This document shows positions 12,206 through 38,448 of a DNA stretch of 64,000 bases, piece after piece. The notes beneath the pieces were generated by a model. It was not told the DNA's origin. It searched no databases and saw nothing but the letters and a program-made list of their open reading frames with translations. Numbering within the stretch: the first letter of the stretch is position 1; each line of letters starts with the position of its first letter. The translations under genes were made by a program, and so were the position numbers. This DNA is from Anaerohalosphaeraceae bacterium (GTDB taxonomy: Bacteria > Planctomycetota > Phycisphaerae > Sedimentisphaerales > Anaerohalosphaeraceae): contig JBNRMN010000033.1 of NCBI GenBank assembly GCA_050309605.1, forward strand, positions 257,460 to 321,459, written 5' to 3'.

Positions 12206-12210
12206 GTGTT

Positions 12211-15200
12211 ATGAGATTGAATCCTCGAACCAGTTCATCGTTTCGCTGGCACAACGCGACCCAGTTTTTGGGGGCGCTGAATGACAATATGTTTCGCTGG
12301 CTGACGGTATTTTTTCTGATCGGTCTGCTGGGCGAGAACCAGGCGTCAAAAATCACTTCGTGGACGGGGTTTGTGTTTGTGCTGCCGTTTTTGCTGTTTA
12401 CCGCGCCGGCCGGTGTGCTGGCGGACCGGTTCAGCAAACGTGATATTATTGTTCTGGCCAAGCTGGCCGAGCTGGCGGTGATGCTGCTGGCGCTGGCGGC
12501 GTTCTATTTCAACAGCATTGCCGGGGTCTATGCGGTGCTGTTTTTGATGTGTACGCAAAGTGCGTTTTTCGGGCCGTGCAAGTACGGGATTATTCCCGAA
12601 CTGGTGGCTTCGGACAAGGTCTCGCGTGCGAACAGTTTTCTAGAAGGACTGACGTATCTGTCGATTGTGGTTGGTACGGCGGTTACGCCGTGGCTGGTGG
12701 AACGGGTGCGTCCGGCGTTTGTGTTGGCGGGGCTGGTCTGTGTCGCGGCGGCCGTTGCGGGGGTGGCATCGAGTCTGAAGATCGGACGGACGCCGCCTCG
12801 CGAAACCGGCGAGCGGATGTCGCTGTTTTTTGTCAGGGATATTTGGCATGCGCTGCGGCAGGTCCGGCAGGACCGCTATTTGATTTTGGCGATTCTGGCG
12901 GCGGCCTATTTCCTGCTGGTGGGCGGGTTTGCCCAGATGAGCCTGATTCCCTACGGGATCCAGACGCTGGGCCTGACCGATACGCAAAGCGGGTATCTGT
13001 TCTTTATCGCGGCGGTGGGTATCGGCGTCGGGTCGTATCTGGCCGGTCGAATTTCCGGGCGGTCGGTTGAGGTCGGCATTATTCCCGTCGGGGCGCTGGG
13101 GATGGCGCTTATGTCCATCGGGCTGGGTCTGGCTCGGTTTGTGCTGTCCGCGACGCCGGGATGGGGGCTGATTCCGATTGTGGTGATGGTGGCGGTATTC
13201 GGGATTAGCTGCGGGCTGTTCATTGTGCCGGTCAATGCGTTTATTCAGCTTCGCTGTCCGGACGCCGTGCGCGGTCGGGTGATTGCGGCTTCGAAGCTGA
13301 TCGGCTGGGTCGGTGTGTTGGCGGCCTCCGGCGTGGTGATGCTGTTTTGCGGCGTGCTGGGCGTCTCGGCGGCGACGATGTTTGTGGTGATGGGGTTGGT
13401 GACGCTGGCGATGGCGGTGTACGCGATGCTGCGTCTGCCGGATTTTTTGATGCGGGCACTGCTGGTGATTTTGGCGCGGGTGCTGTACCGCATCCGGATG
13501 GTTGGTGTGGAGCATGTGCCGACTCAAGGCGGGGCGCTGATAGTATCCAATCATGTCTCATGGGTCGATCCGTTTGTGCTGCTGGCCACGCAGCAGCGGC
13601 GGATTCGATTCCTGATCGACCGCACATTGTACCATCAACTGTGGTGGGCCAAGTGGCTGTTTCGACTGGGGCAGTTGATTCCGGTCAGTGCGAAGGATTC
13701 GCCCAAGAAGATTGTCGCCTCGCTGCGCGATGCCCGGCAGGCGCTGGATGAGGGGTATTTGGTGTGCATTTTTGCAGAGGGGGCGGTTACGCGCAATGGG
13801 ATGATGGCGCGTTTTCGGGCCGGATTTGAGAAGGTCGCCCGCGGGACGGGCCATCCGATAATACCGGCGTATCTGGGCGGTCTGTGGGGCAGTGTGCTCA
13901 GTTATTACAGCGGCCGTCTGTTGGGGCGGTGTCCCTGGCCGCCGCGGCGAAAGGTGGGGGTGTATTTCGGCAAACCAATGGATTCGAACGCCTCGTCGGT
14001 CGCGATCCGTCGGGCGATTGAGGAACTCTCGGCGGCGTATTATACGGACATCAGGCCCGCCCATGAAACGCTGGGGCAGATGTTTGTGCGGTCGGCGCGG
14101 CGGCACTGGCTGCGGCCGTTCGCCTCGGATACGACGGGCAAGCGGGTTTCGTTCGGCAAGGCGCTGATCGGGACGACGGCGCTGGCCGACAAGCTCGAAC
14201 CGATGACACAAGGGCAGGATCGTATTGGGATATTCCTGCCGCCGACGGTCGGCGGGGCGCTGGCCAACACCGCTGCGGTGCTGCTGAACAAGACGGCGGT
14301 GAATCTGTCGTATGCCGTCTCGGCCGAGGATCGGCGGTATATGATCGAAGCGGCGGAATTGAAGACCGTGCTGAGCAGTCGGGCGTTTCTGGAGAAGCTG
14401 CAAATGACGCCCGATGCGCTGCCGGAGGCGGTGTTTTTGGAAGATATTATGCCGACGATCAGCGGGGCCGACAAACGGCGCGCCTTGATCAAGGCGCTGT
14501 TCTGTCCGGCACGGCAACTGGCGCGGGCGCAGCGGGCGTGCAGTGATGAGACGGCGGTGATTTTGTTTTCGTCGGGCAGTTCGGGACGGCCCAAAGGCGT
14601 CGAATTGACGCATTCCAACATGCTGTCCAATCTGGAGATGGTGCTGACGGGCTTTCGGGTGTATCGCAGCGACAAGCTGTGTGCCGTGCTGCCGCTGTTT
14701 CATTCATTCGGGCTGACCTGTACGGTCTGGCTGCCGATTTATGTGGGGGTGCCGGTCAGCTATGTGCCCAATCCGCTAGACGGCAAGCTGGTCGGCCAAG
14801 CGGTGCGCAATGAACGCTGCACGCTGCTGTTTGCCACACCGACGTTTTTGCTGAATTATCTGCGGCGCTGCGAGAAGGACGACTTTGCGACGCTGCGGTA
14901 TGTGGTGGCCGGGGCGGAAAAACTGAAGGTCGCACTGATTGACGCTTTTGAGCAGAAATTTGGTCTTCGCCCGTGCGAGGGATACGGCGCGACGGAATTG
15001 TCGCCGCTGGTGGCACTGAACGTGCCGGATGTGCAGCTCGGCGGGGTATATCAGATCGGTACCAAAGAAGGCACGGTCGGCCACGGGATTCCGGGCCTGG
15101 CACTGCGGGTGGCGGATCCGGAAACGGGCGAGCTGCTGGATTACAATGAGCCGGGCGTGCTGTGGGTCAAGGGGCCGAATGTGATGAAAGGCTACCTGAA

Positions 15201-25696: not shown

Positions 25697-26529
25697 ATTT
25701 ATTAGCGATTGATATCGGCAATACCGTGATGAAAGCGGCTTTTTATTTGAACGACAAGGAACAGCAGTTGGTCAGTCTGCCGCTGAATGACGCGGCGTTT
25801 GAAGCGCGTTTTGCCCGACTGCTGACGGAATGCTGGGATCAGGCCCCGTTGGTGGAATCGGCCGCAGAGCCGACCAAAGATGCGGTGATCGTGGTCAGTT
25901 CGGTCAATCCGGATGCGTCGGACCGTGTGCGTGCGCTCTGTCAGGAAGTGCTGGGTGAGCCGGTCAAGGTGATCGGTCAGGATGTGCCGCTGCCGATTGA
26001 GACCAGCGTCGAGCGGCCGTTTGATGTTGGGACGGATCGGCTGGTAACCGCCGCGGCGGCGTATGCGGTGGTCGAGGACGCGGTGGTGGTGGCCGATTTC
26101 GGCACGGCGGTGACGATTGATTTGGTCGATGAGTCGGGTGTGTTTGTCGGCGGGACGATCAGTCCGGGCTTTGAGATGGCGCTGGAGGCAATGCACGCGC
26201 ACACGGCCAAGCTGCCGCAGGTCGGGATGCAAAAGCCCGCCTCGGTGTATGGCGTTAACACCGCCGAGGCGATGCGGGCCGGTGTGTATTGGGCGGCGGT
26301 CGGGCTGCTGGAGACGATCTGCCGCAAATACGCCGAGCAGTTGGGACGCTGGCCGCATGTGATTTTGACCGGCGGCCGGGCGGCGGTGTTCAAAGACGAT
26401 TGCGAGTTTGTTGATTCGTATGTGCCGGATCTGGCCGTGCGCGGCATTATGATTGCCTATAAGAAAGCACTTTTCGAAGCCGAAGACATCGACCGGCTTG
26501 ATCAAGACAACACAGCCGACACGCGCTGA
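25693..26529 (+). CDS. coaX: Type III pantothenate kinase
   Basis: IDIGNT, GTDR, DFGTAVTID, GGTISPG, LTGG. Confidence 0.93.
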   Translation: MNLLAIDIGNTVMKAAFYLNDKEQQLVSLPLNDAAFEARFARLLTECWDQAPLVESAAEPTKDAVIVVSSVNPDASDRVRALCQEVLGEPVKVIGQDVPLPIETSVERPFDVGTDRLVTAAAAYAVVEDAVVVADFGTAVTIDLVDESGVFVGGTISPGFEMALEAMHAHTAKLPQVGMQKPASVYGVNTAEAMRAGVYWAAVGLLETICRKYAEQLGRWPHVILTGGRAAVFKDDCEFVDSYVPDLAVRGIMIAYKKALFEAEDIDRLDQDNTADTR

Positions 26530-26568
26530 GCTGCATCACGGCGGTCGGCCAATCCGAGACAAACACTG

Positions 26569-27705
26569 CTATCGTGTCAGCAGCCCGTCCAGTTCCGGTT
26601 CGACCGGTTCGGGCAGAGCGATTTCGATGTCCACTGTCAGCGCCGTTTCCGGCGCCGTGAGCATATTGGCGACCGCATAAGATAAGATGTGGGGGTGCTC
26701 GATTTCGGCAAGGGCGATCCTGACGTCGATGCGCGAGCGGGCCGGAATCCTGATGTGTTCCGGGCCGTGCCGTCCGATGCGATTAAGCTCAATATCCAGA
26801 AACGATCGATTGATGATTTCAAAATATCCCGTATCACCCCGACTGTAATACATCGGCAGGACCGTCACGCAGGCTTGATACATCGCCTCAAGCAGGGGGC
26901 GCCGTCCGATCAGCCGATTGTCATGCCAGACCAGTGTGCGGCCTGCAAACAGCGCCTCGCCAATCGCCTCGGTGGTTCGTTCTTTGGCCAGAACCAGCGT
27001 CAGCGTGCGATGTTTTTGGGGGGTATAGACCGAATCGATCGACGGCCCGTGAATATCCGACGTGCCGATCATCGTTAAGTTTTTGTCCAGACACCACTGA
27101 TGCGCCAGGGGGTAATAGGTGCGTCCGTTGGCCACCTCCATACCATGCAGCCATTTGTTTTGGTACATGGTGGTCTGAACGTCCTGCCACTGTCCCCGCT
27201 CGAGTCCCTTCCACGTGTGATGGTTCCAGAACACAAACGCTTTTTGTTCGGCGGCTGCCTTGACCGCATCCAGCACATCCGGCTGATCCAGCGGGGCGAT
27301 TGTGTCCAGCAAAATGGCGTTGTAATGGCCGGGCGGGGTGTCTTTGGTGATTTCGGCCCCTTTAATCAGCAGGACGTTCAACTGACGGGCCTTGGGCGCG
27401 GCAATCTCATAGGGGCGTTCCTGGTTGACCGGAATGTCTTTACTGTGGGGCTGATGCTCAATATGGTCGCTCAGGGCGATGGCATCCAATCCTTCGCGAT
27501 TGGCCTCCTCAATCCGCTCGGTCGGCCATACCGTGCCGTCGGAAAAGACCGTATGTGTATGAAGATCGCAGACCAGCGTCTTGTAGCCGGGAAGGTCGGG
27601 GAAATACGGTTTTGGTTTTGCCGAACACCAGCTCGGCAGGACCAACAGCACACTACACACCCACACACACATCGTCAATCGGCAGGATCGCTTCATTGTC
27701 TTCAT
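26569..27705 (-). CDS. Secreted PHP-domain phosphoesterase
   Basis: CDLHTHTVFSDG, SDHIE, GAEIT, GHYNA, TSDIH. Start placed at MKTMKR (ORF is open from 27903). Confidence 0.85.
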   Translation of the reverse strand: MKTMKRSCRLTMCVWVCSVLLVLPSWCSAKPKPYFPDLPGYKTLVCDLHTHTVFSDGTVWPTERIEEANREGLDAIALSDHIEHQPHSKDIPVNQERPYEIAAPKARQLNVLLIKGAEITKDTPPGHYNAILLDTIAPLDQPDVLDAVKAAAEQKAFVFWNHHTWKGLERGQWQDVQTTMYQNKWLHGMEVANGRTYYPLAHQWCLDKNLTMIGTSDIHGPSIDSVYTPQKHRTLTLVLAKERTTEAIGEALFAGRTLVWHDNRLIGRRPLLEAMYQACVTVLPMYYSRGDTGYFEIINRSFLDIELNRIGRHGPEHIRIPARSRIDVRIALAEIEHPHILSYAVANMLTAPETALTVDIEIALPEPVEPELDGLLTR

Positions 27706-27869
27706 CTCCGAATCAGAACGGTCACTGGTTTTTTCATCTTGCAGGGGTGAACCTGGAAACCGGATTATAAACCGCCTGCGTGTCAAAAGCCACATCTTTC
27801 GTTGAACCATTTGCTCGCGGCCGGGCGGCTGATAGAATCTGTTTCCATTCAGGGCGGTCAGTGCCGAAA

Positions 27870-27910
27870 AAATAAACGGACTGTGGGTATGCTGTGCCGC
27901 CACAGTCCGT
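27870..27910 (-). terminator. Rho-independent terminator downstream of the PEP-CTERM gene
   Basis: ACGGACTGTGG...CCACAGTCCGT 11-bp stem followed by TTATTTTT on the minus strand. Confidence 0.75.
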
Positions 27911-27948
27911 AAATATGTTAATTGACAGTCGGTACGTCAGACGCGATG

Positions 27949-28647
27949 TTATTTGCGTTTGCGCCGCAAGGCCAGGCTGCCCAGGCCCAGCAGGGCCATC
28001 GTCATTGGTTCGGGCACGGCGGTAATTTTAACCGCCGCGATGGCACCGCGTACCGAGTCGTCCCGCGCACCGGCTGCGACCAGCAGCGAATCGGCCGAGA
28101 GCACACCGGAATCGACATAGCCGCGAAGCCCGCCGTCGGTGTCCCAGGTCAGCGCGGCTTGCACCGTGGCCAGCAGGCTGTCGTCATCGGCATCGTAAAG
28201 GGATGTCGGAGTAAAGCCGCTGGCGTTGTCGCTGCTGTGATAGATGCGCACGGTATAACCCGGCGCCCCAATCGCAGCCAGCCAGTCGCCCAGGCCGTCG
28301 AATGTGATGCGGGGTCCGTCGCCGCCGTCATCCAGATAGACGCGATAAAGCTGCTGTTCGCTGGTGTCTTCCAGGCCGCCGGCCCAGGTGTTGGACGCGG
28401 CCCAACTGACCGTGACCAGATCGTTGCTGCCGTGCAGCACCAGATCGGAACCGGACGACGCATCACCCCAGTCCTCAAGCGGCCAGGAATCCGTCCAGTT
28501 GTCAAACCCGTCGGCTGTTTTGCCTTCCAACTGCGGTTTGTCCCAGCCGTCGCAGAAATTCACGCCGATCACGGTTCCGGCGGTGGCCGAGGCGGTCAGG
28601 ACAAGGGCCAGTGCCACGGCAAGAAATGCAGTTAAACCTCTTTTCAT
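27949..28647 (-). CDS. PEP-CTERM sorting domain protein
   Basis: Signal peptide MKRGLTAFL...; C-terminal VPEPMTMALLGLGSLALRRKRK. Confidence 0.92.
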   Translation of the reverse strand: MKRGLTAFLAVALALVLTASATAGTVIGVNFCDGWDKPQLEGKTADGFDNWTDSWPLEDWGDASSGSDLVLHGSNDLVTVSWAASNTWAGGLEDTSEQQLYRVYLDDGGDGPRITFDGLGDWLAAIGAPGYTVRIYHSSDNASGFTPTSLYDADDDSLLATVQAALTWDTDGGLRGYVDSGVLSADSLLVAAGARDDSVRGAIAAVKITAVPEPMTMALLGLGSLALRRKRK

Positions 28648-28681
28648 CGTTCCTACTCCAAATAAACAATCATCTGATTGA

Positions 28682-28843
28682 GCGTAAACAAGAACGCCTT
28701 GTTTACGTGCGTTGGGCCTGGTCTGATTAATAGGCAAAGCAGGTCCGTAAATACTACATATATGGTAAAGTGGCGAGGGGACAAAAGGAGCATTTGGTTC
28801 GTATTTGACGAACCGTCTTTTTGTACACCTTCATCCTCGTCAC
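28682..28843 (+). ncRNA. Candidate structured RNA (four consecutive hairpins)
   Basis: Stems at 28682-28708, 28714-28746, 28752-28767 and 28770-28843; their wobble pairs are G-U on the + strand. Confidence 0.3.
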
Positions 28844-28971
28844 GTTATTTTCTCCGCCGTTGACCGGTCTGAACAGAATAAAAAACAATTATAAACAGAG
28901 ATCAGGAAAAAGTCAACCTTAAAATGCTATTTTGGGCAGATATTTCGAATTCAGCCTCCCGTTGGCGAAAG

Positions 28972-29356
28972 CACACCAACCGAGTGGTGCGGGTGAGCCG
29001 GATTGCAACACGTAACACCAGCCGAGCCGCGCGAGTGAGCCGGATTATGTGGCGTCTTGGAAAACGTCCCATCTATCCGCATCCCCGTATCGGGCGGCTT
29101 GCGCCGCCGCGCTATTGCGCGGGATGTTGCGTTGCGTCATCGTACAATAGCCGAGCCGCGCGAGCGGCCGGATTATGTGGCGTCTTGGAAAACGTCCCAT
29201 CTATCCGTATCCCGTATCGGGCGGCTTGCGCCGCCGCGCTATTGCGCGGGATGTTGCGTTGCGTCATCGTACACCAGCCGAGCCGCGCAAGCGGCCGGAT
29301 GACGACACCCACGGCGTTACGTCCCCCATCGGGCGGCTTGCGCCGCCGCGCTATTG
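28972..29356. repeat. BIME-like tandem array of inverted REP pairs (~128-bp period)
   Basis: AGCCGAGCCGCG at 29020, 29149 and 29276, each followed by ATCGGGCGGCTTGCGCCGCCGCGCT; the first two units are near identical. Confidence 0.9.
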
Positions 29357-29639
29357 TCCGCGCTGTTGTGTCGCTGTTGTTTGCAACCGTATTGGGTGTC
29401 CTTGCGCCGTCGCGGTATCGAGGTATTTTGTGGCTCAATATCCGGTTCGCATCGATTCGTGTTGCCCTATTTTGCTGGAGGTCGATTTCGGAGTTTTTTT
29501 TAAGTTTTTTGGCGGGCGGAGCTTGTGCGCGGAGCGAGGGCAGAGCGGTCGGGTGTTTTCACCGCATCGGCGGCCATTCGGGGCTGGTGCGGGGCAGAAC
29601 GGCAAAACAGATGATAAGGTTTGATAAAAGGATGAAACG

Positions 29640-31088
29640 ATGAGCTTTGAACTGACCATTTTCGAAGACGCCGAACTTCAGGCCGAGTACCTCGACTGGC
29701 TGACCGAGCAGCAGTGGCCGGACAATCAGGCGCATTTCGGGCGGCTGTGGGATTACTACCAAAACCCGTCTGCGTCGTCGTATGGCGGCGGCAATGAGGA
29801 AACGGGCAACGGACGGATTCAGGCCCAGGAAACAGGGCTGCCGCCGCGGATTACCGGTCGGACTTACACCTCGACGCAGGAGGCGGGTCTCGGCAGAAAA
29901 GTCAGTGACATTCAGCGCAAAGAAGTGGTGATTGAAAACGACATTGCCTGGCGCATCGGCGCGATGGTGGATTTTCTATTCGGCAAAGGCGTGTCGTTTG
30001 TCAGCCGCGTCGCCGAGGCGACTCGACGCCAAGAGATTGAACGGATTGTTAAAGCGGTGTTCGAGGCCAACGGCGGCGCGGGCTTTTTCCAGGAGTTGGC
30101 GGTGCTCGGGAGCGTGTATGGATTTGCGGACTGCCTTGTGCGTCCGGGCGAGCGGCTTGTTTCACGTTTGTGCCGTCCTTGGCGGCAGGACGTTCGCAGA
30201 ACACTTCCAGACGCATCTTCATTTCAAACCATCCTTGACCACGCGGAAACCATCGCCCTTGAGCTGATCGAAGCGCCTCGGGCACTGCCGATCCTGGACG
30301 AGTCGGACTACCGCAGACTGCGGTACTATGTGCAGCATTTTCAGCAGCCGTGCAACGCGATTGAGCACAGCGGCCCGTCGATTGTCAGCCGGATGGCCGG
30401 TCGCGCCGGCCAGCGGCAGCGCAAGATCATCACCGTAACCGAAATCCTGGGTCCCTCGGCCTGGCAGCGGTACGAAAACGGCGAGCTGGTTCGGCAGGGC
30501 GCCAATCCGCTGGGGTTTGTGCCGGTGGTGCATATTCAGAATCTGGCCCAGCCGTATGCGTATGAGGGCATCAGCGACGTGGAGCAGTTGGTGCCGCTGC
30601 AGGATGAGCTGAACACGCGGCTCAGCGACCGGGCCAGCCGGATCACGATGCAGGCGTTCAAGATGTATCTGGCCAAAGGGCTGGACGGATTTTCCGACAA
30701 GACGATTTCTCCGGGGCGGCTGTGGTTTACGGACAATCCCGAAGCGACGATTGAGGCGTTCGGCGGCGATACGGCCAGCCCCAGCGAGAACCTGCACATT
30801 GCCGAGGTGCGCGAGGCGATGGACAAAATCAGCGGAGTCACGCCGGTGGTTGCGGGGGTACTGAAGAACAAGCTGGGCAATCTGACCAGCGGCGTGGCGC
30901 TGAAGATGACGTTTATGGGGATGCTGAGTAAAACGGCGCGCAAGCAGTTGACCTACGGACAAGGTCTGCGATCCATCGCGAAGATGGTGCTGACGATGCT
31001 GGACCGGGCCGGCGTCTATCCGACCACTCCGGAAGAGCGAAACGTTGAGGTGCAGTTTGCCGATCCGCTGGACGAGCAGGAAAAGTAA
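29640..31088 (+). CDS. Phage portal protein (SPP1 gp6-like)
   Basis: RLWDYY...VVIENDIAWRIGAMVDFLFGKGV, NPLGFVPVVHIQN, GISDVEQLVPLQDELN, SGVALK, VEVQFADPL pattern; first gene of a head module. Confidence 0.82.
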   Translation: MSFELTIFEDAELQAEYLDWLTEQQWPDNQAHFGRLWDYYQNPSASSYGGGNEETGNGRIQAQETGLPPRITGRTYTSTQEAGLGRKVSDIQRKEVVIENDIAWRIGAMVDFLFGKGVSFVSRVAEATRRQEIERIVKAVFEANGGAGFFQELAVLGSVYGFADCLVRPGERLVSRLCRPWRQDVRRTLPDASSFQTILDHAETIALELIEAPRALPILDESDYRRLRYYVQHFQQPCNAIEHSGPSIVSRMAGRAGQRQRKIITVTEILGPSAWQRYENGELVRQGANPLGFVPVVHIQNLAQPYAYEGISDVEQLVPLQDELNTRLSDRASRITMQAFKMYLAKGLDGFSDKTISPGRLWFTDNPEATIEAFGGDTASPSENLHIAEVREAMDKISGVTPVVAGVLKNKLGNLTSGVALKMTFMGMLSKTARKQLTYGQGLRSIAKMVLTMLDRAGVYPTTPEERNVEVQFADPLDEQEK

Positions 31089-31173
31089 AAGGGTAAAGGT
31101 AAAAAGGTAAAGGTGTACTCTGTGGTTGTTATGTGAGTTTGAAATTTGTGATTTGAGAAAGGGGAAAGTGAGT

Positions 31174-31683
31174 ATGAGTCAGAATGATGTAGAACATCAC
31201 GATCTGTCAGAAGACAACGGAAACGCGGAAAAGACGGTGCCGGTATCGGAAGCGATTCGGTATCGCAAACGTGCCCAGCAGGCCGAGCAGCACCTGGCCG
31301 AGGTACAGGACCAATTGTCGCAGCAGCGACAGCAGACCGAGCAGTTGAACCAGCAGCTTTCGGCCTTGCATCAGCAACAGGCGCTTCGCGAGGCGCTGCA
31401 CGAGGCCGGGACGACCGATCCGGAAACGACGCTGCTGCTGGCCCAGGCACGGCTGGCGGCTGACGAAACGGAAGACGCCGCATCGGTGGTTCAGCAGCTT
31501 CGCCGCGACAAGCCGCACTTGTTTGCCGCGTCGGTCAACACCGCCGCGCCGGACAAGACCGCCGGCCTTCGTCATCGCCGGGACGGCAACGAGGCGCTCA
31601 CCAGCGCCGCAGCGCGAGCGGCTCAAAGCGGAAACCGGGCGGATTTGCAGCAGTATCTGCGAATGCGACGGCGGCATGTGTGA
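31174..31683 (+). CDS. Putative capsid scaffolding protein
   Basis: Coiled coil, 'LRRDKPHLF' motif typical of phage scaffolds, basic C-terminus; lies between portal and capsid. Confidence 0.7.
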   Translation: MSQNDVEHHDLSEDNGNAEKTVPVSEAIRYRKRAQQAEQHLAEVQDQLSQQRQQTEQLNQQLSALHQQQALREALHEAGTTDPETTLLLAQARLAADETEDAASVVQQLRRDKPHLFAASVNTAAPDKTAGLRHRRDGNEALTSAAARAAQSGNRADLQQYLRMRRRHV

Positions 31684-31693
31684 CGCCAGACAG

Positions 31694-31763
31694 CCTCATC
31701 CCCGCGGAGGCGGGGAATCGGGGGTTACGCGGCGATTGGATTCCCGCCTTCGCGGGAATGGCA
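31694..31763. repeat. REP-like palindrome (TCATCCCCGCGGAGGCGGGGAATC...GATTCCCGCCTTCGCGGGAATG)
   Basis: Imperfect inverted repeat resembling the widespread GTCATTCCCGCGAAGGCGGGAATC REP family; lies between scaffold and capsid genes. Confidence 0.75.
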
Positions 31764-31854
31764 GTACAGAAGGGGGATGACAGTACAGACAGAAATGGAA
31801 GTATCGAACGAGAACGATCGTATTAACAAGAACGAATGGAAAGGGGTAAACAAA

Positions 31855-33009
31855 ATGGCTTTTACAGGAAAAGCAACCTACAGTGCCGGCCCGACGCTGC
31901 CGGAAATCGCCGAAGATGTGTCGGATTTGATTTCGATTGTTTCGCCGTATGAAACGCCGCTGCTGGATGTGCTGGGCGATTCGCTGCGAGCGGCGACCAG
32001 CACGCATCATGAATGGCTTGAAGACGAATTGCTGCCGAACAAGGACATCGTCGATGATGGAATGATCGGCGATCCGCTTGATTCGGAGCAGTTCGGTGTG
32101 GCCCATCCCTCGCGTTTTCGCATCGGCGACCAGATTCTGATTGAAGGCTCCAAAGAGCTGATGCTGGTGACCAACATCTTGGAAAACAGGATAGTGGTGG
32201 TGCGCGGCTATGCAGGGACGACACCAGAAGAGATTCTGGATGGCCAGACGATTAACATTCTCGGCAATGCGGCGCTGGAAGGCGATGACCGGCCGGCGGC
32301 GCGGTTTACCCAGCGCGTTCGCAAAAGCAACTGGACGCAGATCTTCACCGCCGCGGTCGAGGTCAGCGGGTCGGATATGGCGGTCAATCAACTGGGGCTG
32401 GACGACGAGATGGACTATCAGAAGCAGGAGCGGCTGCGCGAATTGCTGCGCGACCTGGAAAACACCGTCATCAACGGCGGTATGCCCACGGTCAATCCGC
32501 AGGGCAGCGGCTCGGTACGGCGGACGATGCGCGGCATTATCACGCATCTGACGACGAACGTGTTTACGCCGGGACAGGCGGGGTTTCCCGACAGCAGCGG
32601 CCTTGACGAAAATCAGATCAACACCGCCCTGCGCCGTATTTGGGAAAACAGCAGCGGCAGCGTCGATCTGATCGTCGTTGGCGGCTATCAGAAACGACAG
32701 ATCAATGATTTTTTGTCGGCGATTCGCGGCTACGGCGCTAACGACACGACCTATCGCGATCGGGTCAGCCTGTACGAAAGCGATTTCGGCGTCTGCCGCA
32801 TCGTCACCACGCGCTGGATGCCGCAGGATACGGTGCTGCTGCTGGATTCGTCGCGGATCAGCGTGATGCCGCTGGCCGGACGCAGCTTCCACTTCAAGCC
32901 CCTGGCCAGCAGCGGCGACTATGAGTGCGGCGAGTTGATCGGCGAATACACGCTGGAGCTGCGAAACGAAGCGGCGCACGGTGTTATCCGCGGATTGGCG
33001 ACGATGTGA
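31855..33009 (+). CDS. Major capsid protein (DUF5309/SU10-like, HK97 fold)
   Basis: EDVSDLI...PYETPLL, HEWLEDEL, NWTQIF, RDLE, RTMRG, YESDFG, GEYTLELRNEAAHG pattern; AAGGGG RBS before ATG 31855. Confidence 0.82.
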   Translation: MAFTGKATYSAGPTLPEIAEDVSDLISIVSPYETPLLDVLGDSLRAATSTHHEWLEDELLPNKDIVDDGMIGDPLDSEQFGVAHPSRFRIGDQILIEGSKELMLVTNILENRIVVVRGYAGTTPEEILDGQTINILGNAALEGDDRPAARFTQRVRKSNWTQIFTAAVEVSGSDMAVNQLGLDDEMDYQKQERLRELLRDLENTVINGGMPTVNPQGSGSVRRTMRGIITHLTTNVFTPGQAGFPDSSGLDENQINTALRRIWENSSGSVDLIVVGGYQKRQINDFLSAIRGYGANDTTYRDRVSLYESDFGVCRIVTTRWMPQDTVLLLDSSRISVMPLAGRSFHFKPLASSGDYECGELIGEYTLELRNEAAHGVIRGLATM

Positions 33010-33040
33010 GGTTTAGAGTTTTGAGTTCTGCACATTCATC

Positions 33041-33083
33041 GGGTCGGGGTCGAAACAGGGCAACAAGGGGCAGGCCCCGGCCC
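33041..33083 (+). terminator. Hairpin downstream of the capsid gene
   Basis: GGGTCGGGGTC...GGCCCCGGCCC stem; no clear U-tract. Confidence 0.35.
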
Positions 33084-33142
33084 GGATAGAATATTGAGAA
33101 TTGAGAATTGGGAATTGGGAATTTCAAGTGAAGGAGATTGTT

Positions 33143-33781
33143 ATGCTGACCTGTGATGTGGATTTGCTGATTTTGGAGCCGGCGTTGTTTAAGCTCTGGC
33201 GGATTGATCATCAGCAGCGGTGTCGCGGCGGCAATGGGACGCTCGACGGAACGAGCTTCAGTGCGTCGGGAATGGATTTTATCGCGTCGGGCGTTCAAGT
33301 TGGTGATGTGCTGTACCTGGCCAGTATCGACAGCGTGATCGACGGCTGCTATGAGATCATCGAAGTGGCCTCGACGACGCAGTTGACGGTTTCCATGGTG
33401 CGCGGCGATGAGACCGATCCGCCAATCGCCGTCGGATCCGGCAATAATCTGATCTGGCACATCAGCACATTCGCGCCGCAGCGGGCCAGGGCCGAGCGGT
33501 CGCTGTCAGATCGGCTGAGATTGACGCCGGAGGCCATTGCTATGCTCGGCGCAGAAAGTCGGCGACAGTTTCGTGCAGCGGTGACTGCGGCGGCACTGGT
33601 GCTGGTTTTTGAAGCACTGATTCAGCAGGACGACGATGATGTGTTCGAACGCAAAAAAGACGTCTATCAGCAGGCGACCGAGGCGGCGGTGTGTCGGCTG
33701 CGGCTGGAGCTGGATACAACCGGCGATGAGCGAACCGATACAGTGCGTCGCGGCGATGAGCTGCACTTAAAACGCGGGTAA
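33143..33781 (+). CDS. Hypothetical protein, possible head-completion/connector
   Basis: AAGGAG RBS; directly after the capsid; beta-rich middle and helical C-terminus. Function inferred from position only. Confidence 0.55.
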   Translation: MLTCDVDLLILEPALFKLWRIDHQQRCRGGNGTLDGTSFSASGMDFIASGVQVGDVLYLASIDSVIDGCYEIIEVASTTQLTVSMVRGDETDPPIAVGSGNNLIWHISTFAPQRARAERSLSDRLRLTPEAIAMLGAESRRQFRAAVTAAALVLVFEALIQQDDDDVFERKKDVYQQATEAAVCRLRLELDTTGDERTDTVRRGDELHLKRG

Positions 33782-33801
33782 GGATCAGCGGGAGTGAGAG
33801 G

Positions 33802-34047
33802 ATGCAGACACAACAGGACAAGTGGCGGCTGGAACGGCGGGTCAGCGTCTCGGCGCTGGTGCAGGTGGTGATGCTGGCCGGATTGATAATCGGCAGTTGG
33901 GTCAACTTGCAGCGTCAGTTGGATTTGCTCCAGCGGGATGTACGGCTGCTGCTGGCGTCGCAGGAAAAATTCTGCACCCGGCTTGAGCGTTTGCAGGAAA
34001 CAACGCTCTCGCAGGAGTATCGCCTGCGACACTTGGAAAACCAATAA
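33802..34047 (+). CDS. Small single-TM coiled-coil protein (holin-like?)
   Basis: GAGG RBS; TM (VSALVQVVMLAGLIIGSWV) followed by a heptad region. Confidence 0.6.
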   Translation: MQTQQDKWRLERRVSVSALVQVVMLAGLIIGSWVNLQRQLDLLQRDVRLLLASQEKFCTRLERLQETTLSQEYRLRHLENQ

Positions 34048-34060
34048 CGCAAACACAAAA

Positions 34061-34135
34061 GCGCGGCAGCGTAAGCGGCCCGATAGGGCGAAACGACGTG
34101 GGTGTCGCTGTCCGGCCGCTCGCGCGGCTCGGCTG
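34061..34135 (-). repeat. Inverted copy of the REP pair at 29276-29352
   Basis: Reverse complement reads CAGCCGAGCCGCGCGAGCGGCCGGACAGCGACACCCACGTCGTTTCGCCCTATCGGGCCGCTTACGCTGCCGCGC, colinear with 29275-29351. Confidence 0.85.
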
Positions 34136-34170
34136 TTGTGAAAACAACGCTTGTCAAACTGAAGGAGACT

Positions 34171-34746
34171 ATGATGAAAAAGGCATTGATGATTGTCGTA
34201 TTGACCGTATGGGGCTGCGGGTGCGGGATGGTTCGGCCGGCGGCTACGGAAGCGCAGAAACAGAACGCCTGGGCGCATTGGCGGACGTGCGATCTGACCG
34301 GGCAGACGGCGCGTCAGGAAGCCGCTTCGGACACGCTTCAGGCGCTGACGGCCCTGACGGCGCAGCAGAGTGAGGCGTTTGTACTGGATTACGGGTTGCC
34401 CAGCGAGCCGCCGACGATGGAGACGGTCGAGGCGGTGTTGGCCGAGGCGCCGGCTCTTGCGCAGCAGGCGACCGTCGATGCGCAGCGAAAACCCGATGCG
34501 TGGGCGATGGCCGACGGGGCGCTGGAGCTGGGCATCGGGCTTGCCGGGCTTTTGGGCGGTGTGTACGGCCTTCGGCTTACGACGTTTCTTAAGCAGGCAA
34601 AGCAAAAAAGTGACGCGCTGAGGGAGATCGTCGAAGGCAATGAGCTGTTCAAGCAGCTTTGCCCAACGGCAACCGATCAATTCAAGCAAGCCCACGCCAA
34701 CCAGTCGGCTGCGACGAAGCGACTGGTCACGGAAACCAAAGGATAA
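34171..34746 (+). CDS. Putative lipoprotein with second hydrophobic segment (spanin-like?)
   Basis: AAGGAG RBS; signal peptide ending VWGCGC; LELGIGLAGLLGGVYGL segment. Confidence 0.65.
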   Translation: MMKKALMIVVLTVWGCGCGMVRPAATEAQKQNAWAHWRTCDLTGQTARQEAASDTLQALTALTAQQSEAFVLDYGLPSEPPTMETVEAVLAEAPALAQQATVDAQRKPDAWAMADGALELGIGLAGLLGGVYGLRLTTFLKQAKQKSDALREIVEGNELFKQLCPTATDQFKQAHANQSAATKRLVTETKG

Positions 34747-34816
34747 CAGCGAAATGTCAGTCTCAAAGGGGCTAACTGACTGAACACCCCTCCGGGGTGA
34801 TGGTCTCGGATACATT

Positions 34817-35566
34817 ATGAGCGCGTGCAGAATCACATCACAACTTGAACTGGTCAAGGCCGACATCACGGCCTATCGGGCATTGGAGCGGTATCATTAT
34901 CGCGACGGGGCGTTGGGGCCGTATTGTGCGATTTACGCCTTGGCCGAGCGGTGCCTGCGGCGGCAGAAGACCGGGGCGACGGCGGGGGTGATTGTCTATG
35001 CTCCCGCGCCGCTGAACTGTGCGATGCGCGACGTGGCCACCGGCGGATACTTTGCCGGACGCTGCAAGGCCGAGAAGCTGGCGCTGCTCAATGCGCACGT
35101 GAGGCGGATCAGCCGCGTGATCATTGAGCCGCGGTATCGCGGGCTGGGCCTGGCAACGCGGCTGGTGCGCGATACCCTGCCGCAGGTCGGGTCGGCGCTG
35201 GTTGAGGCCTCGGCGGCGATGGGGCATTTGCACCCGTTTTTTGAGCGGGCCGGGATGCGGCCCTTTGCACCGGGTGCCGATCCGGTGCGTGAGCGTCTGG
35301 AACAGGCGTTGATTGAGGCCGGGATTGATTCATCACGGTGGATCGAGCCGGCGGCGGTCCAGGCGCGATTGGAGTCGTTGAGCAAAATGCAACGCGAGTC
35401 GGTGGAAAAAGAGATACAGTTATTCCTGAATCGATTTGGTCGAAGACGCACCATGACGCCGGGATCGGAGCGGACAGCGTATGTCCTGAATCGGCTGGCC
35501 GCAGCACCGATGTATTACGCCTGGCTCAACCCTGACAGACCGGCAGCGGGGTTGTGGCTTGCATAA
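34817..35566 (+). CDS. GNAT-fold acetyltransferase-like protein
   Basis: RISRVIIEPRYRGLGLA acetyl-CoA-binding motif A; FFERAGM. Confidence 0.75.
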   Translation: MSACRITSQLELVKADITAYRALERYHYRDGALGPYCAIYALAERCLRRQKTGATAGVIVYAPAPLNCAMRDVATGGYFAGRCKAEKLALLNAHVRRISRVIIEPRYRGLGLATRLVRDTLPQVGSALVEASAAMGHLHPFFERAGMRPFAPGADPVRERLEQALIEAGIDSSRWIEPAAVQARLESLSKMQRESVEKEIQLFLNRFGRRRTMTPGSERTAYVLNRLAAAPMYYAWLNPDRPAAGLWLA

Positions 35567-35588
35567 GGAAGAAAATTCAAGATGTGCT

Positions 35589-35615
35589 TGTGTTTTTTCG
35601 ATCTTTTGCTATACT
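35589..35615 (+). promoter_or_regulatory. Putative sigma70 promoter of ssrA
   Basis: TGcTATACT extended -10 about 27 nt upstream of the mature tmRNA 5' end. Confidence 0.45.
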
Positions 35616-35641
35616 GTAGGCGTATAGGAACAGGTACAGAA

Positions 35642-35993
35642 GGGGGCGAAAGGCTTCGACCGGATAGGATGACGGTCAGGCGGCGTGTCCAGGATGACGG
35701 TTGGCCTGGTAAATCATCCGTCACGAACAATAACTGGCAACTACCAGTATGCAATGGCTGCGTAAATAACCAGCCCGTCCCGGCAGACCTTGTTCGCGGG
35801 TTTGCCCCGGACGTCGGAAAGCGAACTGGCCTGCGGGTGTGTTTGCGGCCCAACGGCGAGACTTTAGCAGACTAGTGAGCACCGAAGCCTGTCGTTCGGC
35901 GTTGGTGCGAGCGAACCTTCAATAGAGCGACTATGCACGTAGAAGTCTGGCCTGAAATATCACGGGACGGGGGTTCGACTCCCCCCGCCTCCA
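35642..35993 (+). ncRNA. ssrA: tmRNA
   Basis: 5' GGGGGCG...TTCGAC pairs with 3' GGGGGTTCGACTCCCCCCGCCTCCA (G3-U70); tag frame at 35736-35765 encodes (A)GNYQYAMAA-stop; 352 nt. Confidence 0.95.
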
Positions 35994-36069
35994 TATTTTT
36001 ATATACACGCAGGTGCGGTGTATCAACGTCGAATTCCTTGATTGCCAACTGTTGTTGAAAGCGTATGTT

Positions 36070-37329
36070 ATGCGAAAACTCAACGCCGTGGTGATGACGC
36101 TGGCGGGGGGGTTGCTGATTGCGGCGGCCGTTCTTAAGGTTCATGAAGTACTGACCGTCTATTTCCCCTCGTGGCGTGAGCACGGCGTGTGGGAGTCGTG
36201 GGAGTTTTTCCTTGTCCAAATTCCGGTGGAGTTTGCACTGGGGGTGTGGATGGTCAGCGGCTTGTTTCGCAAAGCGGCCTGGCTGGCCGGGACCATTGCC
36301 TATTTCGGGTTTATCGGCGTTACTCTGTACAAGGCCCTGATCGGGGCCGAGTCCTGCGGATGTTTCGGACGGGTGGAAGTGGACCCGTGGATCACCCTGT
36401 TTGCGGTGGATGTGCCGTTTGCCCTGCTGTTGGTGATTTTCCGTCCCAAAGGACTGAAACTGCTTCCGCCGCCGTGGCCGCGTATCGGCCATGCCATTGC
36501 CACGGCGATTCCGATTTTTGCGGCACTGATCTTTACGGCGCCGATGCTGGTGGCCTTTCGACCTGAGTTTACCAAACCTGAAGACTGGACGGCGCAGGGG
36601 ACGCCCCCGCCGCGACCGATTGTCAAACCCAAGCCGGTCGATGTGTCCGATCCGGCAGACGTCCGGACGGACCCTGCACCGCCTGCCGATCCGACACCCA
36701 TAGCGGAGACGGACCCGGAACCTGAACCGGAGCGGACTGACGACCCGACGGTTCATACAGCCCCGTCGCAAACCGATGCCAAACCCGATCAGCCGGCTGC
36801 TGCGGAAACCGAAGCACAACCTGACCAGACGCCGGAACCGGAACCGATTCGTGATCCGGAACCTGAAATTGAGCCGGAACCGGAGACAGAGCCGAAGACA
36901 GAACCTGAGATTGCGGCGGAACCGGAATCCGAGCCGGAACCTGAGATTGCGGCGCCGCCGTTGTGGCCGTGGCTGGAGTATATTGACATTGCCGACCAGC
37001 TCAAAGAGGGCATCGTCGTTGCCTATATGTACCATCACGATTGCTCGATTTGTGCCGACAGTGTGCCCACATACGAGGCCTATCACAAAGAAATGGAGCA
37101 AATGGGGGTTGAGGAGTTCACGATTGCCTACCTTGCCATTCCGCCGTACGGCCAGGGGCCTGTGCCGGCCGATACAACCTGTCTGCACGGCAAGTTGACC
37201 GACAAACGCAGTTGGGCGATTACCAGTCCGTTCGTGGTCGCCTTGATTGACGGCAGCGTGGTCAAGCAGTGGCCGCAGGGACAGGCGCCCGAACCGGATG
37301 CGATTTTGGATGAAATCTTCGGTCCCTGA
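36070..37329 (+). CDS. MauE/DoxX-like membrane protein with Pro/Glu-rich linker and CxxC thioredoxin-like C-terminal domain
   Basis: TMs with ESCGCFG motif, PE-rich repeats, YHHDCSIC, ITSP. Confidence 0.75.
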   Translation: MRKLNAVVMTLAGGLLIAAAVLKVHEVLTVYFPSWREHGVWESWEFFLVQIPVEFALGVWMVSGLFRKAAWLAGTIAYFGFIGVTLYKALIGAESCGCFGRVEVDPWITLFAVDVPFALLLVIFRPKGLKLLPPPWPRIGHAIATAIPIFAALIFTAPMLVAFRPEFTKPEDWTAQGTPPPRPIVKPKPVDVSDPADVRTDPAPPADPTPIAETDPEPEPERTDDPTVHTAPSQTDAKPDQPAAAETEAQPDQTPEPEPIRDPEPEIEPEPETEPKTEPEIAAEPESEPEPEIAAPPLWPWLEYIDIADQLKEGIVVAYMYHHDCSICADSVPTYEAYHKEMEQMGVEEFTIAYLAIPPYGQGPVPADTTCLHGKLTDKRSWAITSPFVVALIDGSVVKQWPQGQAPEPDAILDEIFGP

Positions 37330-37356
37330 CCGGGATGGGATCGGCCTCAGGCCGGA

Positions 37357-38448
37357 TTACGCTTTCAATCGTTCCAAAATCACATCGGTATTCACATATT
37401 GACTGACTAATTCGTGCAGACGGGCGACTTTGTCGGTGTCGTAAGAACGAATCTTAAAGCCCAGATCCTTCATTCGCGAGCTGACGGTGAACGTGTCGTC
37501 ATTGCTCAGCAAAATCGGAATGTGGCTGGACTTCATCAGCGGTTCAATCATCGGATGCGGGTCAAACCCGCCTGTTAAAATCAGCCCGCCGCCGGGGTTG
37601 TCCTGGCGAGACAGCACAAGTATGGAAACAAGAATATTATCGATACGGTCACCGGGGATGATGATGAGCGTGTTTTCGCGGATGTGGCGAATGACGTTTT
37701 GCGGTTCCATCGCTGCGACGACGGTGTGGTCGGCGCGATTGCTGAGGTGGTCGTGTCCGCACAGGATCGTGTAATTAAATTCCTCGGCCAACTGTCCCAT
37801 GGTAAACGTCGTCAGTTGCGGCACGTAGGGAATCGCCCCGAGCAGCTCGGTCCCCAGCAGACGCAGTCCCTTGGCGACGGTGTCTTTGACTTTGTCGTAT
37901 TTTTCGGTAAGGACTTTATTCAGGACGACGCCGAGCACCTCCACGTTATGCTCACGAAACACAGCCAGACTCATCGCAATTTCGTCAAGCGGTCGTCCGA
38001 TGCCGCCGGCGGTAACGATGACCACCTTGGCTTCCAGCAGCTCGGCCACGCGGGCGTTGGACAGCCCAAAGCAGCTTCCGACGCCTGCATGTCCGGTTCC
38101 CTCGACGATGATCATCGAATGCACTTGTTTGAGGGTTTGATGACAGCGAATGATTTCGCGTTCGAGCGGCTCAACGTTGGGATTGTCGATGAATTTTCGG
38201 GTAAAGCCCGGCTCAATCGCAATGGGACTGAGGTAATAGGGTTCATCGCGCAGGTTAAAGACCTGATGCACGAGCACGCCGTCCTCGTCGATGTTCTTGT
38301 CCTGATAGCGCACGTAGTGCTGGCCGACCGGTTTGCAGTAGCCCGGGTCGATGCCCTGATCCCGCAAGACCTGAATCATCCCCAAACTGACCGAGGTCTT
38401 GCCGCAGTCGCGAAGGGTCGCACCGATATAAAGCGGTTTAATGTCCAT
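37357..38448 (-). CDS. BioD-like / phosphotransacetylase N-terminal (AAA_26 + DRTGG) protein
   Basis: DCGKTSV, KPVG, VEGTGH, LNKV, IPGDRID, LTGG. Confidence 0.85.
   Translation of the reverse strand: MDIKPLYIGATLRDCGKTSVSLGMIQVLRDQGIDPGYCKPVGQHYVRYQDKNIDEDGVLVHQVFNLRDEPYYLSPIAIEPGFTRKFIDNPNVEPLEREIIRCHQTLKQVHSMIIVEGTGHAGVGSCFGLSNARVAELLEAKVVIVTAGGIGRPLDEIAMSLAVFREHNVEVLGVVLNKVLTEKYDKVKDTVAKGLRLLGTELLGAIPYVPQLTTFTMGQLAEEFNYTILCGHDHLSNRADHTVVAAMEPQNVIRHIRENTLIIIPGDRIDNILVSILVLSRQDNPGGGLILTGGFDPHPMIEPLMKSSHIPILLSNDDTFTVSSRMKDLGFKIRSYDTDKVARLHELVSQYVNTDVILERLKA

Follow-up and report, generated by a model that had tools for sequence, protein, structure and literature searches.

Why does a bacterial chromosome carry a run of phage head genes beside its tmRNA gene, with nothing around them that resembles the rest of a phage? 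The question is raised by a 64,000-nucleotide stretch of DNA (the window; contig JBNRMN010000033.1, positions 257,460 to 321,459) from an Anaerohalosphaeraceae bacterium of the planctomycete class Phycisphaerae (assembly GCA_050309605.1), in which seven intact, co-oriented open reading frames (ORFs) on the forward strand, between positions 29640 and 35566, form a head module. An earlier note, made from the letters alone, had described seven such ORFs bounded by a PEP-CTERM gene and ssrA, had named a portal, a scaffold and a DUF5309-like major capsid protein (MCP) among them, and had taken the module for a long-resident, host-maintained capsid system, perhaps split over several loci, rather than a recent prophage. 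The ORF list and ARAGORN confirm the first of these points and Pfam and PHROG matches the second, weakly for the scaffold; the distribution, trees and substitution ratios given below support the third.

We propose that the module is part of a domesticated, multi-locus, vertically inherited DNA-packaging particle of the Phycisphaerae, a viriform that would resemble a gene transfer agent (GTA) and would here be tail-less, a reading to which we give somewhat better than an even chance. In what follows, G000 is the window's genome, C33 the window's contig, and C1 and C43 are other contigs of G000. The genome is 99.7% complete in 97 contigs, and the module lies inside a 321-kb contig, about 30 kb from either window end; no assembly break has therefore removed a prophage, an explanation for which the earlier note had allowed. 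As that note also stated, no terminase, integrase or tail gene lies near the module; a large terminase (TerL) is encoded elsewhere, on C1.

Head genes and their descent

The portal protein matches PF05133 (4.8e-14; 52.6 bits against a cut-off of 25.5) over profile positions 113-365 of 416 only, and phrog_64 at 1.9e-22, while the NCBIfam model TIGR01538 scores far below its cut-off. It is the sole SPP1_portal match in G000, and its identity across the order is 46-85%. The portals of the window's genus end about 35 residues early in the alignment (window 31050-31088); other genera share a conserved C-terminal helix-like segment. The putative scaffold matches PF06810 below the Pfam cut-off (5.4e-6) and phrog_194 (9e-4), and lies between the portal and MCP genes in 89 of 101 related loci, some of which represent the same genome. 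No other gene of the module has diverged as much, identity within the genus being 41-67%. The MCP is a much stronger match, to PF17236 (SU10_MCP; 6.4e-89, 298.8 bits against a cut-off of 24.1, profile positions 11-292 of 292) and to phrog_1328 (1.4e-83), and is single-copy in G000. Relatives align to its ORF from residue 25-27 onward and GGAAAGGGG lies directly 5' of the ATG at 31855, so that the gene most likely starts there. The earlier note had credited most of the ORFs with clear ribosome-binding sites; the claim is checked only in part, from the DNA before two start codons.

The MCP is mostly single-copy and is found in 33 of the 41 genomes of the order (24 of 28 high-quality genomes), with 58-83% identity in 32 of the 40 genomes other than G000; a 30% match in G012 was rejected as a different capsid. 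Within the class, 143 of 251 genomes carry it at an identity of at least 52%, and its occurrence follows clades: it is present in 18/18 genomes of family f10, 12/12 of f19, 33/38 of f14 and 5/5 of f21, and absent from f11 (0/10), f20 (0/15), f23 (0/11) and f26 (0/7). Cultured phages match the MCP at 31.6% identity at best and the portal at no more than 28%, the latter over half the protein's length. The patchy distribution that the earlier note had named as a contrary sign was thus not seen, nor were nearest homologs in intact phages, where identities reach at most 32% for the MCP and 28% for the portal. In a sample of 301 genomes of the phylum, 275 of them from outside the class, 12 of the outside genomes have an MCP homolog, at best 48-50% identical. 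These homologs belong to a few non-Phycisphaerae lineages, among them family f68, with six genomes, and three more families from another class; the system would either predate the Phycisphaerae or have undergone a single transfer.

Single-gene trees of 41 genomes from 13 GTDB families (quick IQ-TREE runs, LG+G4) were compared with the taxonomy. On the MCP tree, where the window's order forms a starred clade, family labels need 14 changes, against a minimum of 12 and a shuffled mean of 30.8, and none of 200 shuffles was as low. The TerL tree needs 12 changes and the Obg control tree (27 genomes) 10, in each case the minimum. Patristic distances correlate with those of Obg (r = 0.68 for the MCP and 0.77 for TerL) and with each other (MCP against TerL, r = 0.54; Mantel p = 0.001 each), and identity to G000 tracks that of Obg (r = 0.83 and 0.93, n = 26), the related genomes in these correlations not being independent. 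Within the genus, MCP identity is 80-83% and Obg identity 79-84%.

Ratios of nonsynonymous to synonymous substitution (dN/dS) were estimated with two to five congeners per gene by the crude Nei-Gojobori method (NG86), at dS values of 0.5-1.4 that are partly saturated. They are 0.17-0.25 for the portal, 0.13-0.24 for the MCP, 0.23-0.41 for the gene 3' of the MCP (a probable adaptor), 0.22-0.52 for the scaffold, 0.13-0.20 for the small membrane protein tm81, 0.10-0.16 for the lipoprotein and 0.17-0.26 for the GNAT-like protein; the control values (four rows computed) are 0.09-0.20 for Obg and 0.06 for an aminotransferase. By these comparisons the module is inherited vertically and is under purifying selection, and the relaxed selection or pseudogenization of which the earlier note had warned is not what the ratios indicate.

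The tmRNA gene beside the module raises another explanation, an ordinary recent prophage fragment left at ssrA, a common phage attachment site, after integration and deletion. Of the 16 loci scanned, only two show the adjacency, those of G000 and of its closest relative, G002 (L033 and L042, both in the scan, are the same G002 stretch). A repeat search found no copy of the ssrA end and no att-like repeat within 26000-38000, as the earlier note had reported of a duplicated ssrA end. Tyrosine recombinases of PF00589 have 10 matches in G000, none of them on C33, C1 or C43. The GC content of the module (0.57-0.61) is similar to that of its flanks, in agreement with the host-like composition that the note had described, the orthologs are class-wide with identities graded by taxonomy, and the best phage match is 32%. 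We consider the ssrA adjacency incidental and reject ssrA as an integration site, given its restriction to G000 and G002 and the lack of a duplicated 3' end. Unless the genomes are misbinned, the distribution and tree results already refute a recent prophage, to which we assign next to no probability.

Terminase genes at separate loci

The earlier note's idea of a split locus is borne out by two further sites in G000. The terminase families PF03237, PF03354, PF04466 and PF20441, N-terminal ATPase families included, have no match in the genome; a single ORF of 496 residues (C1:8231-9721) matches PF17289 (Terminase_6C; 1.9e-7, 31.6 bits against a cut-off of 22.6) and phrog_2, a large terminase in PHROGs (2e-18). 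Its neighbors are a YbaK-type editing gene and DNA polymerase- and tRNA-synthetase-like genes. The genome-wide search for orphan phage genes that the note had proposed thus found the terminase; a tail gene was not recognized in G000.

TerL is present in 38 of the 41 genomes of the order (27 of 28 high-quality genomes) at 50-95% identity, and in 170 of the 251 genomes of the class, being absent from the same families that lack the MCP. Both proteins are found in 139 class genomes, the MCP only in 4, TerL only in 31, and neither in 77; several of the 31 are weak matches that are probably other terminases. In complete genomes the two genes lie far apart (positions of 2.16 and 3.14 Mb in G031, 2.08 and 2.77 Mb in G037, 0.14 and 4.40 Mb in G038). 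In G116, from another order, TerL lies immediately upstream of where the portal must be (G116 C1:870008-874640), which suggests a contiguous ancestor. Other orders of the class have TerL within 2-4 kb of the MCP and on the same strand (G116, G048:C13, G228:C151, G058:C268). In all 41 TerL sequences the Lys and Thr of Walker A, the Asp and Glu of Walker B and four Asp residues in the nuclease half are unchanged.

In many relatives the GNAT homolog lies in a divergent operon upstream of the portal rather than at the end of the head cluster (seen in loci L065, L066, L069 and L077). This operon encodes a helix-turn-helix (HTH) regulator, an ABC-like ATPase, the GNAT protein, a ParB-N-domain protein, sometimes a DUF1376 protein, and a protein resembling the small terminase (TerS; phrog_2538, 7e-9); in L065 it also holds the large terminase. 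Positions 3449-6174 of C43 in G000 group homologs of three of these genes: the HTH protein (27% identity to the relatives' regulator, E 1e-12), the ATPase (40% identity; phrog_293, 1.9e-25) and the TerS-like protein, which at 97 residues, compared with 160-170 in relatives, matches the C-terminal half at 40% identity. A ParB-like homolog was not found in G000 at E <= 1e-8. With head genes on C33, TerL on C1 and the HTH, ATPase and TerS-like genes on C43, the system is spread over at least three contigs. Between the HTH and ATPase genes of C43 (L153, 3977-4987) lies a 336-residue secreted protein without a PHROG match that is not there in the relatives examined; an outer-membrane protein would be our guess.

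The co-inheritance of TerL bears on a further explanation, in which the module would build a portal-bearing nanocompartment that packages no DNA and serves as an encapsulin-like storage or enzyme shell. An HK97-fold capsid, a scaffold and a portal would suffice for such a shell, and no tail is seen in G000. However, TerL accompanies the MCP in 139 of the 143 genomes that carry the latter, its ATPase and nuclease residues are invariant in all 41 sequences, and G000 also has a TerS-like gene; the MCP has no cargo-type gene fused to it or next to it. We therefore regard the nanocompartment as very unlikely.

Probable adaptor, tail-like genes and putative envelope proteins

The 226-residue protein encoded 3' of the MCP, to which the earlier note had given no function, has no sequence-level match in Pfam, PHROGs, NCBIfam or a PDB profile search. 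Its AlphaFold2 model, built with 25 orthologs, has a mean predicted local distance difference test score (pLDDT) of 87.5. In an exhaustive comparison with 48,161 PDB representatives (VIA-align), phage neck and adaptor proteins rank at the top: the Mu neck subunit (Z 8.3 and 8.1), the P74-26 neck (8.0), the phage GP4 portal-tail protein (7.9), KHP30 (7.7), the SU10 tail chain 7z47_A (7.6), T4 gp13/14 (7.3), the Bxb1 connector (7.3) and HK97 gp6 (6.7). The matches span residues 14-226, and their Z of 6.7-8.3 is near the noise band stated for the aligner. The protein also carries an inserted beta-barrel (residues ~37-125) resembling tailspike and tail-tip domains. Foldseek found nothing in the PDB at E <= 0.001 and partial matches only in BFVD (a tail-fibre beta domain and one head-to-tail adaptor), and prediction of a portal-adaptor complex gave no verdict (score 0.00). 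Because the fold matches agree in function and the gene is kept directly after the MCP, in 92 of the 101 related loci, we read the protein as a probable, but not certain, head-to-tail adaptor.

Across the 101 loci the portal is present in 95 and the adaptor in 92, and two layouts can be distinguished, the remaining loci being cut by contig ends. In the short layout (21 loci, all loci of the window's genus included) the adaptor is followed directly by tm81 and the lipoprotein; in the long layout (57 loci) extra genes lie between the adaptor and tm81. There are four to seven of these per locus, in the order X121, X255, X263, a variable X383/X146/X225 stretch and X616, with mean column identities of 83% for X263, 70% for X616 and 66% for X255. 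No family match was found for the seven genes of locus L030 in Pfam or PHROGs, nor in NCBIfam (a scan of 15 proteins with nothing above cut-off), and X263, X255 and X616 have no PDB profile match. X616 has 402 relatives, of which all 120 listed are named 'hypothetical protein' and none has a Pfam domain. Its model is poor (pLDDT 47); the N-terminal domain resembles tail-tube and baseplate-hub folds (Z 8.8 to the HFTV1 tail, 8.1 to a PVC spike, 8.0 to the phi812 hub, 6.5 to Mu gp44 and 5.8 to the GTA virion 6tba). A tail hub, and with it a short tail built by the extra genes, would be only a lead. One genome of the window's family, G017 (95% complete), has a conserved TerL and no MCP match, and on C30, C12, C60 and other contigs at least three full-length X263 copies (51-60% identity) as well as fragments; X263 may have a life apart from the capsid.

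Two proteins close the cluster in both layouts. tm81 has a single hydrophobic helix at its N terminus and then a heptad-like stretch of about 45 residues; its homologs stand at the cluster end in 48 of the 101 loci, and it has no family match except a weak one to phrog_3899 (0.004). In the lipoprotein alignment a signal-like segment precedes an invariant G-C lipobox, and a second transmembrane helix, rich in glycine (ELGIGxAGLLGGVYG), and a cytoplasm-side C-terminal tail of about 45 residues are conserved as well; the gene is present in 38 of the 101 loci, and many of those loci are cut by contig ends. The pair may act at the cell envelope, where release, anchoring or a fusion of spanin-like kind would be candidate roles. 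The GNAT-like protein is an accessory gene of the system: it has weak Pfam GNAT matches and a match to phrog_886 (4.7e-7), a conserved R-G-L-G-L-A motif and, in the alignment, an invariant P-R-x-R-x-L-G-L; a PDB profile search returned acetyltransferase fragments only (E 0.05-0.3).

We propose that the three loci would act together as follows. The window (locus A) would supply the portal, scaffold, SU10-type capsid and adaptor for a procapsid with a portal vertex, along with two envelope proteins and the GNAT-like accessory protein; C43 (locus B) would supply the HTH regulator, the ABC-like ATPase and the short TerS-like protein; and TerL from C1 (locus C) would pump DNA into the procapsid and cut it, after which the adaptor would close the portal. 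In most relatives a short tail is probably built by the four to seven genes that follow the adaptor, of which at least one resembles a tail hub. These genes would have been lost from the window's genus and from several more lineages, leaving a tail-less, DNA-filled head as the product, and tm81 and the double-anchored lipoprotein may act at the envelope in its release or anchoring. We infer the assembly of the particle, its DNA packaging and DNA content, its release and any transfer from these gene assignments.

Several observations weigh against this proposal. A tblastn search of G000 with the seven extra genes found no match, and neither the tape-measure (PF10145) nor the sheath (PF04984) family matches there, so that the version in G000 appears to be tail-less; endolysin and holin were likewise not identified in this genome. 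X263 is present in 14 of the 41 order genomes and in none of six from the window's genus (27 of the 41, G000 included, are without it); tail loss happened repeatedly while head and terminase stayed. We know of no DNA-delivery route for a tail-less head. Several high-quality genomes of the family (G017, G213) have TerL and no MCP match, which shows that loss is tolerated, and the shortened portal C-terminus and 97-residue TerS-like protein imply that the local version may be functionally reduced. The adaptor assignment draws on Z values of 6.7-8.3, near the noise band, the tail-hub reading of X616 on a model with a pLDDT of 47, and the selection evidence on NG86 estimates at partly saturated dS (0.5-1.4). 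The ATPase, GNAT and ParB accessory genes would also fit a defence role.

The first of these concerns, taken further, would make the module of the window's genus a decaying remnant, whose head genes persist after tail loss by inertia or by moonlighting. The loss of four to seven genes after the adaptor, the shortened portal and TerS-like proteins and the fast-evolving scaffold (41-67% identity within the genus) would accord with decay, as would an insertion of about 3.2 kb between the scaffold and portal genes of the congener G001 (L032, ~11300-14450). Most of the seven genes are nevertheless intact in the well-assembled congeners G002, G003 and G001, and the module genes on short contigs of G004 and G005 are intact. 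The lipoprotein is represented by two tblastn pieces and a 141-residue ORF in G003, with no complete ORF in G001. The dN/dS of portal, MCP, tm81, lipoprotein and GNAT-like protein (0.10-0.26) is in the range of Obg for the same genome pairs, MCP identity within the genus equals that of Obg (80-83% and 79-84%), and the short layout recurs in other families with intact genes (21 loci). Decay is in our view quite unlikely.

A defence role, in which gene transfer would have no part, would have the module act as a domesticated, immobile, satellite-like element, with capsids that capture phage tails or packaging signals, or with an abortive response mounted by the ATPase, GNAT and ParB genes. The dispensability of tail genes while head and TerL are kept (X263 in 14 of 41 genomes, the MCP in 33 of 41) would fit tail borrowing; the accessory operon combines a ParB-like nuclease-domain protein with an ABC-like ATPase and a GNAT protein, and the ATPase matches PADLOC mad3 (1e-12 to 1.6e-15). 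That match, however, is confined to the generic ABC ATPase region, and for the remaining 13 proteins of the scan nothing rises above noise. ParB-like proteins beside TerS are ordinary in phage packaging modules, which speaks against this role. There is no integrase on the three contigs and no replication or helper-sensing gene, replication genes not having been searched for genome-wide. Class-wide vertical inheritance at housekeeping-like conservation is unusual for defence islands, which usually turn over fast. We hold the defence role to be unlikely.

It is also unlikely, in our judgement, that the system is an ancient class-wide viriform, without kinship to known GTAs, which shed its tail in many lineages, this one among them, and whose portal-capped DNA heads would be handled by tm81 and the lipoprotein for tail-independent DNA release, exchange or storage, as a novel phage-derived organelle and not a typical GTA. 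A small chance falls to explanations outside those considered here. The GTA-like packaging particle remains the reading that we favor.

Relation to known systems and features of the window

Of the traits that mark GTAs, vertical inheritance under purifying selection and dispersed genes without integrase or att repeats (integrases having been searched for on C33, C1 and C43) are found here; a delivery apparatus, that is a tail, and lysis functions are not found in G000. The RcGTA-type GTAs of Alphaproteobacteria are similar in their class-wide, vertically inherited, phage-derived head and packaging genes under purifying selection, in lacking integrase and replication genes (the latter not searched for genome-wide here), and in a dispersed gene set whose regulators are encoded away from the structural genes. 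In the long layout, the relatives have about as many genes after the capsid as an RcGTA head-tail cluster. The two systems have no detectable sequence relationship, the present one having a PF17236 MCP, an SPP1-like portal and a scaffold gene where RcGTA has a prohead protease. In this order, unlike in RcGTA, TerL is detached from the structural cluster, and the window's genus is without a recognizable tail. A GTA is defined by packaging of random host DNA, by a capacity too small for the whole gene set and by transfer, properties that the present particle may share.

Capsid-forming phage-inducible chromosomal islands (cf-PICIs) carry genes of their own for a portal, a capsid, a scaffold or protease, an adaptor and a terminase; they lack tail genes, and their tail-less heads depend on tails from another source. 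The present system, as seen in G000, likewise encodes head and terminase without a recognized tail; satellites, in contrast, are mobile and patchy in distribution, with an integrase and replication or helper-sensing genes, while here there are at least three unlinked loci, no integrase on the three contigs and descent along the host tree (helper-response genes are not recognizable by the methods used). Nor were the features of an integrated prophage found, namely a contiguous phage genome, integrase, att repeats or patchy distribution. SU10-like/DUF5309 phages have the same capsid family and the order portal-scaffold-capsid-adaptor (the adaptor being a probable one here), and one of the chains that the adaptor model matches in fold is the SU10 tail adaptor. 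However, the best identities are 31.6% (MCP) and 28% (portal), no phage genome surrounds the module, and Sporosarcina phage Lietuvens, the nearest annotated phage, has a phrog_38 terminase where this TerL belongs to phrog_2. PBSX and tailocins are likewise phage structural genes that the host has turned to its own ends. Tailocins keep tails and PBSX is a contiguous whole prophage, both confined to narrow taxa; the present system keeps heads, is split and spans a class. Encapsulins, too, are HK97-fold shell proteins kept as host genes, but are without portal, scaffold, adaptor and terminase, all four of which, the adaptor probably, are encoded here together with a TerS-like gene.

To our knowledge, only a handful of independently domesticated phage-particle systems exist. 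In the portions of text that it returned, a full-text literature search on Planctomycetota/Phycisphaerae capsids, terminases and gene transfer agents held no description of such a system, and the class-wide Phycisphaerae system is probably a new gene-transfer-agent-like particle. Conservation at the level of a housekeeping gene, throughout a class whose members are abundant anaerobes of sediments and digesters, implies a strong benefit. The natural series from contiguous cluster to detached terminase to tail loss could reveal how a virus turns into part of a cell, and what use a tail-less packaged head can have. Loci of this kind are likely mis-scored as prophages or viral contigs: IMG/VR holds two near MCP matches, at 66% and 71% (L123 and L124; contigs of 62 and 39 kb), both on contigs that carry the module. 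L124 has the full long layout, the same module as on bacterial contigs, and looks like a bacterial contig scored as a virus because of its module genes.

Table 1. Features of the module and its surroundings in the window
Feature	Position	Strand	Basis or setting
PEP-CTERM gene, upstream bound of module	27949-28737	-	profile search
Non-coding tandem repeats, ~127-nt unit, ~3 copies	28973-29412		between PEP-CTERM gene and portal
Portal protein, SPP1 gp6-like, 482 aa	29640-31088	+	PF05133, phrog_64
Scaffolding protein, start uncertain	31126-31683	+	weak PF06810, phrog_194; position
Major capsid protein (MCP), SU10/DUF5309 type, HK97 fold family	ORF 31777-33009, likely gene 31855-33009	+	PF17236
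Probable head-to-tail adaptor, 226-aa ORF	33101-33781, likely start 33143	+	predicted fold, position
tm81, 81-aa transmembrane/coiled-coil membrane protein	33802-34047	+	read from sequence
Lipoprotein	ORF 34102-34746, likely gene 34171-34746	+	alignment of relatives
GNAT-like protein, 249 aa	34817-35566	+	weak Pfam GNAT, phrog_886
tmRNA (ssrA), neighbor outside the system	35642-35993	+	ARAGORN

The flanking ORFs are housekeeping genes (Obg, CoaX, PHP, MauE-like, aminotransferase). The 900-bp gap 5' of the portal is occupied by the 127-nt tandem repeats, which explain the ORF at 28924-29643; it is without Pfam or PHROG match and was rejected as an artefact of the repeats. The 16-nt GC-rich palindromic core of the 127-nt unit occurs 28 times on 12 contigs of G000 and looks like a family of elements akin to repetitive extragenic palindromes (REP), and a related palindrome lies between the scaffold and capsid genes (31690-31760). 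Downstream of the tmRNA gene, degenerate 18/42-nt repeats at 36700-36940 in the MauE-like ORF (36013-37329) encode a Pro-Glu-rich linker.

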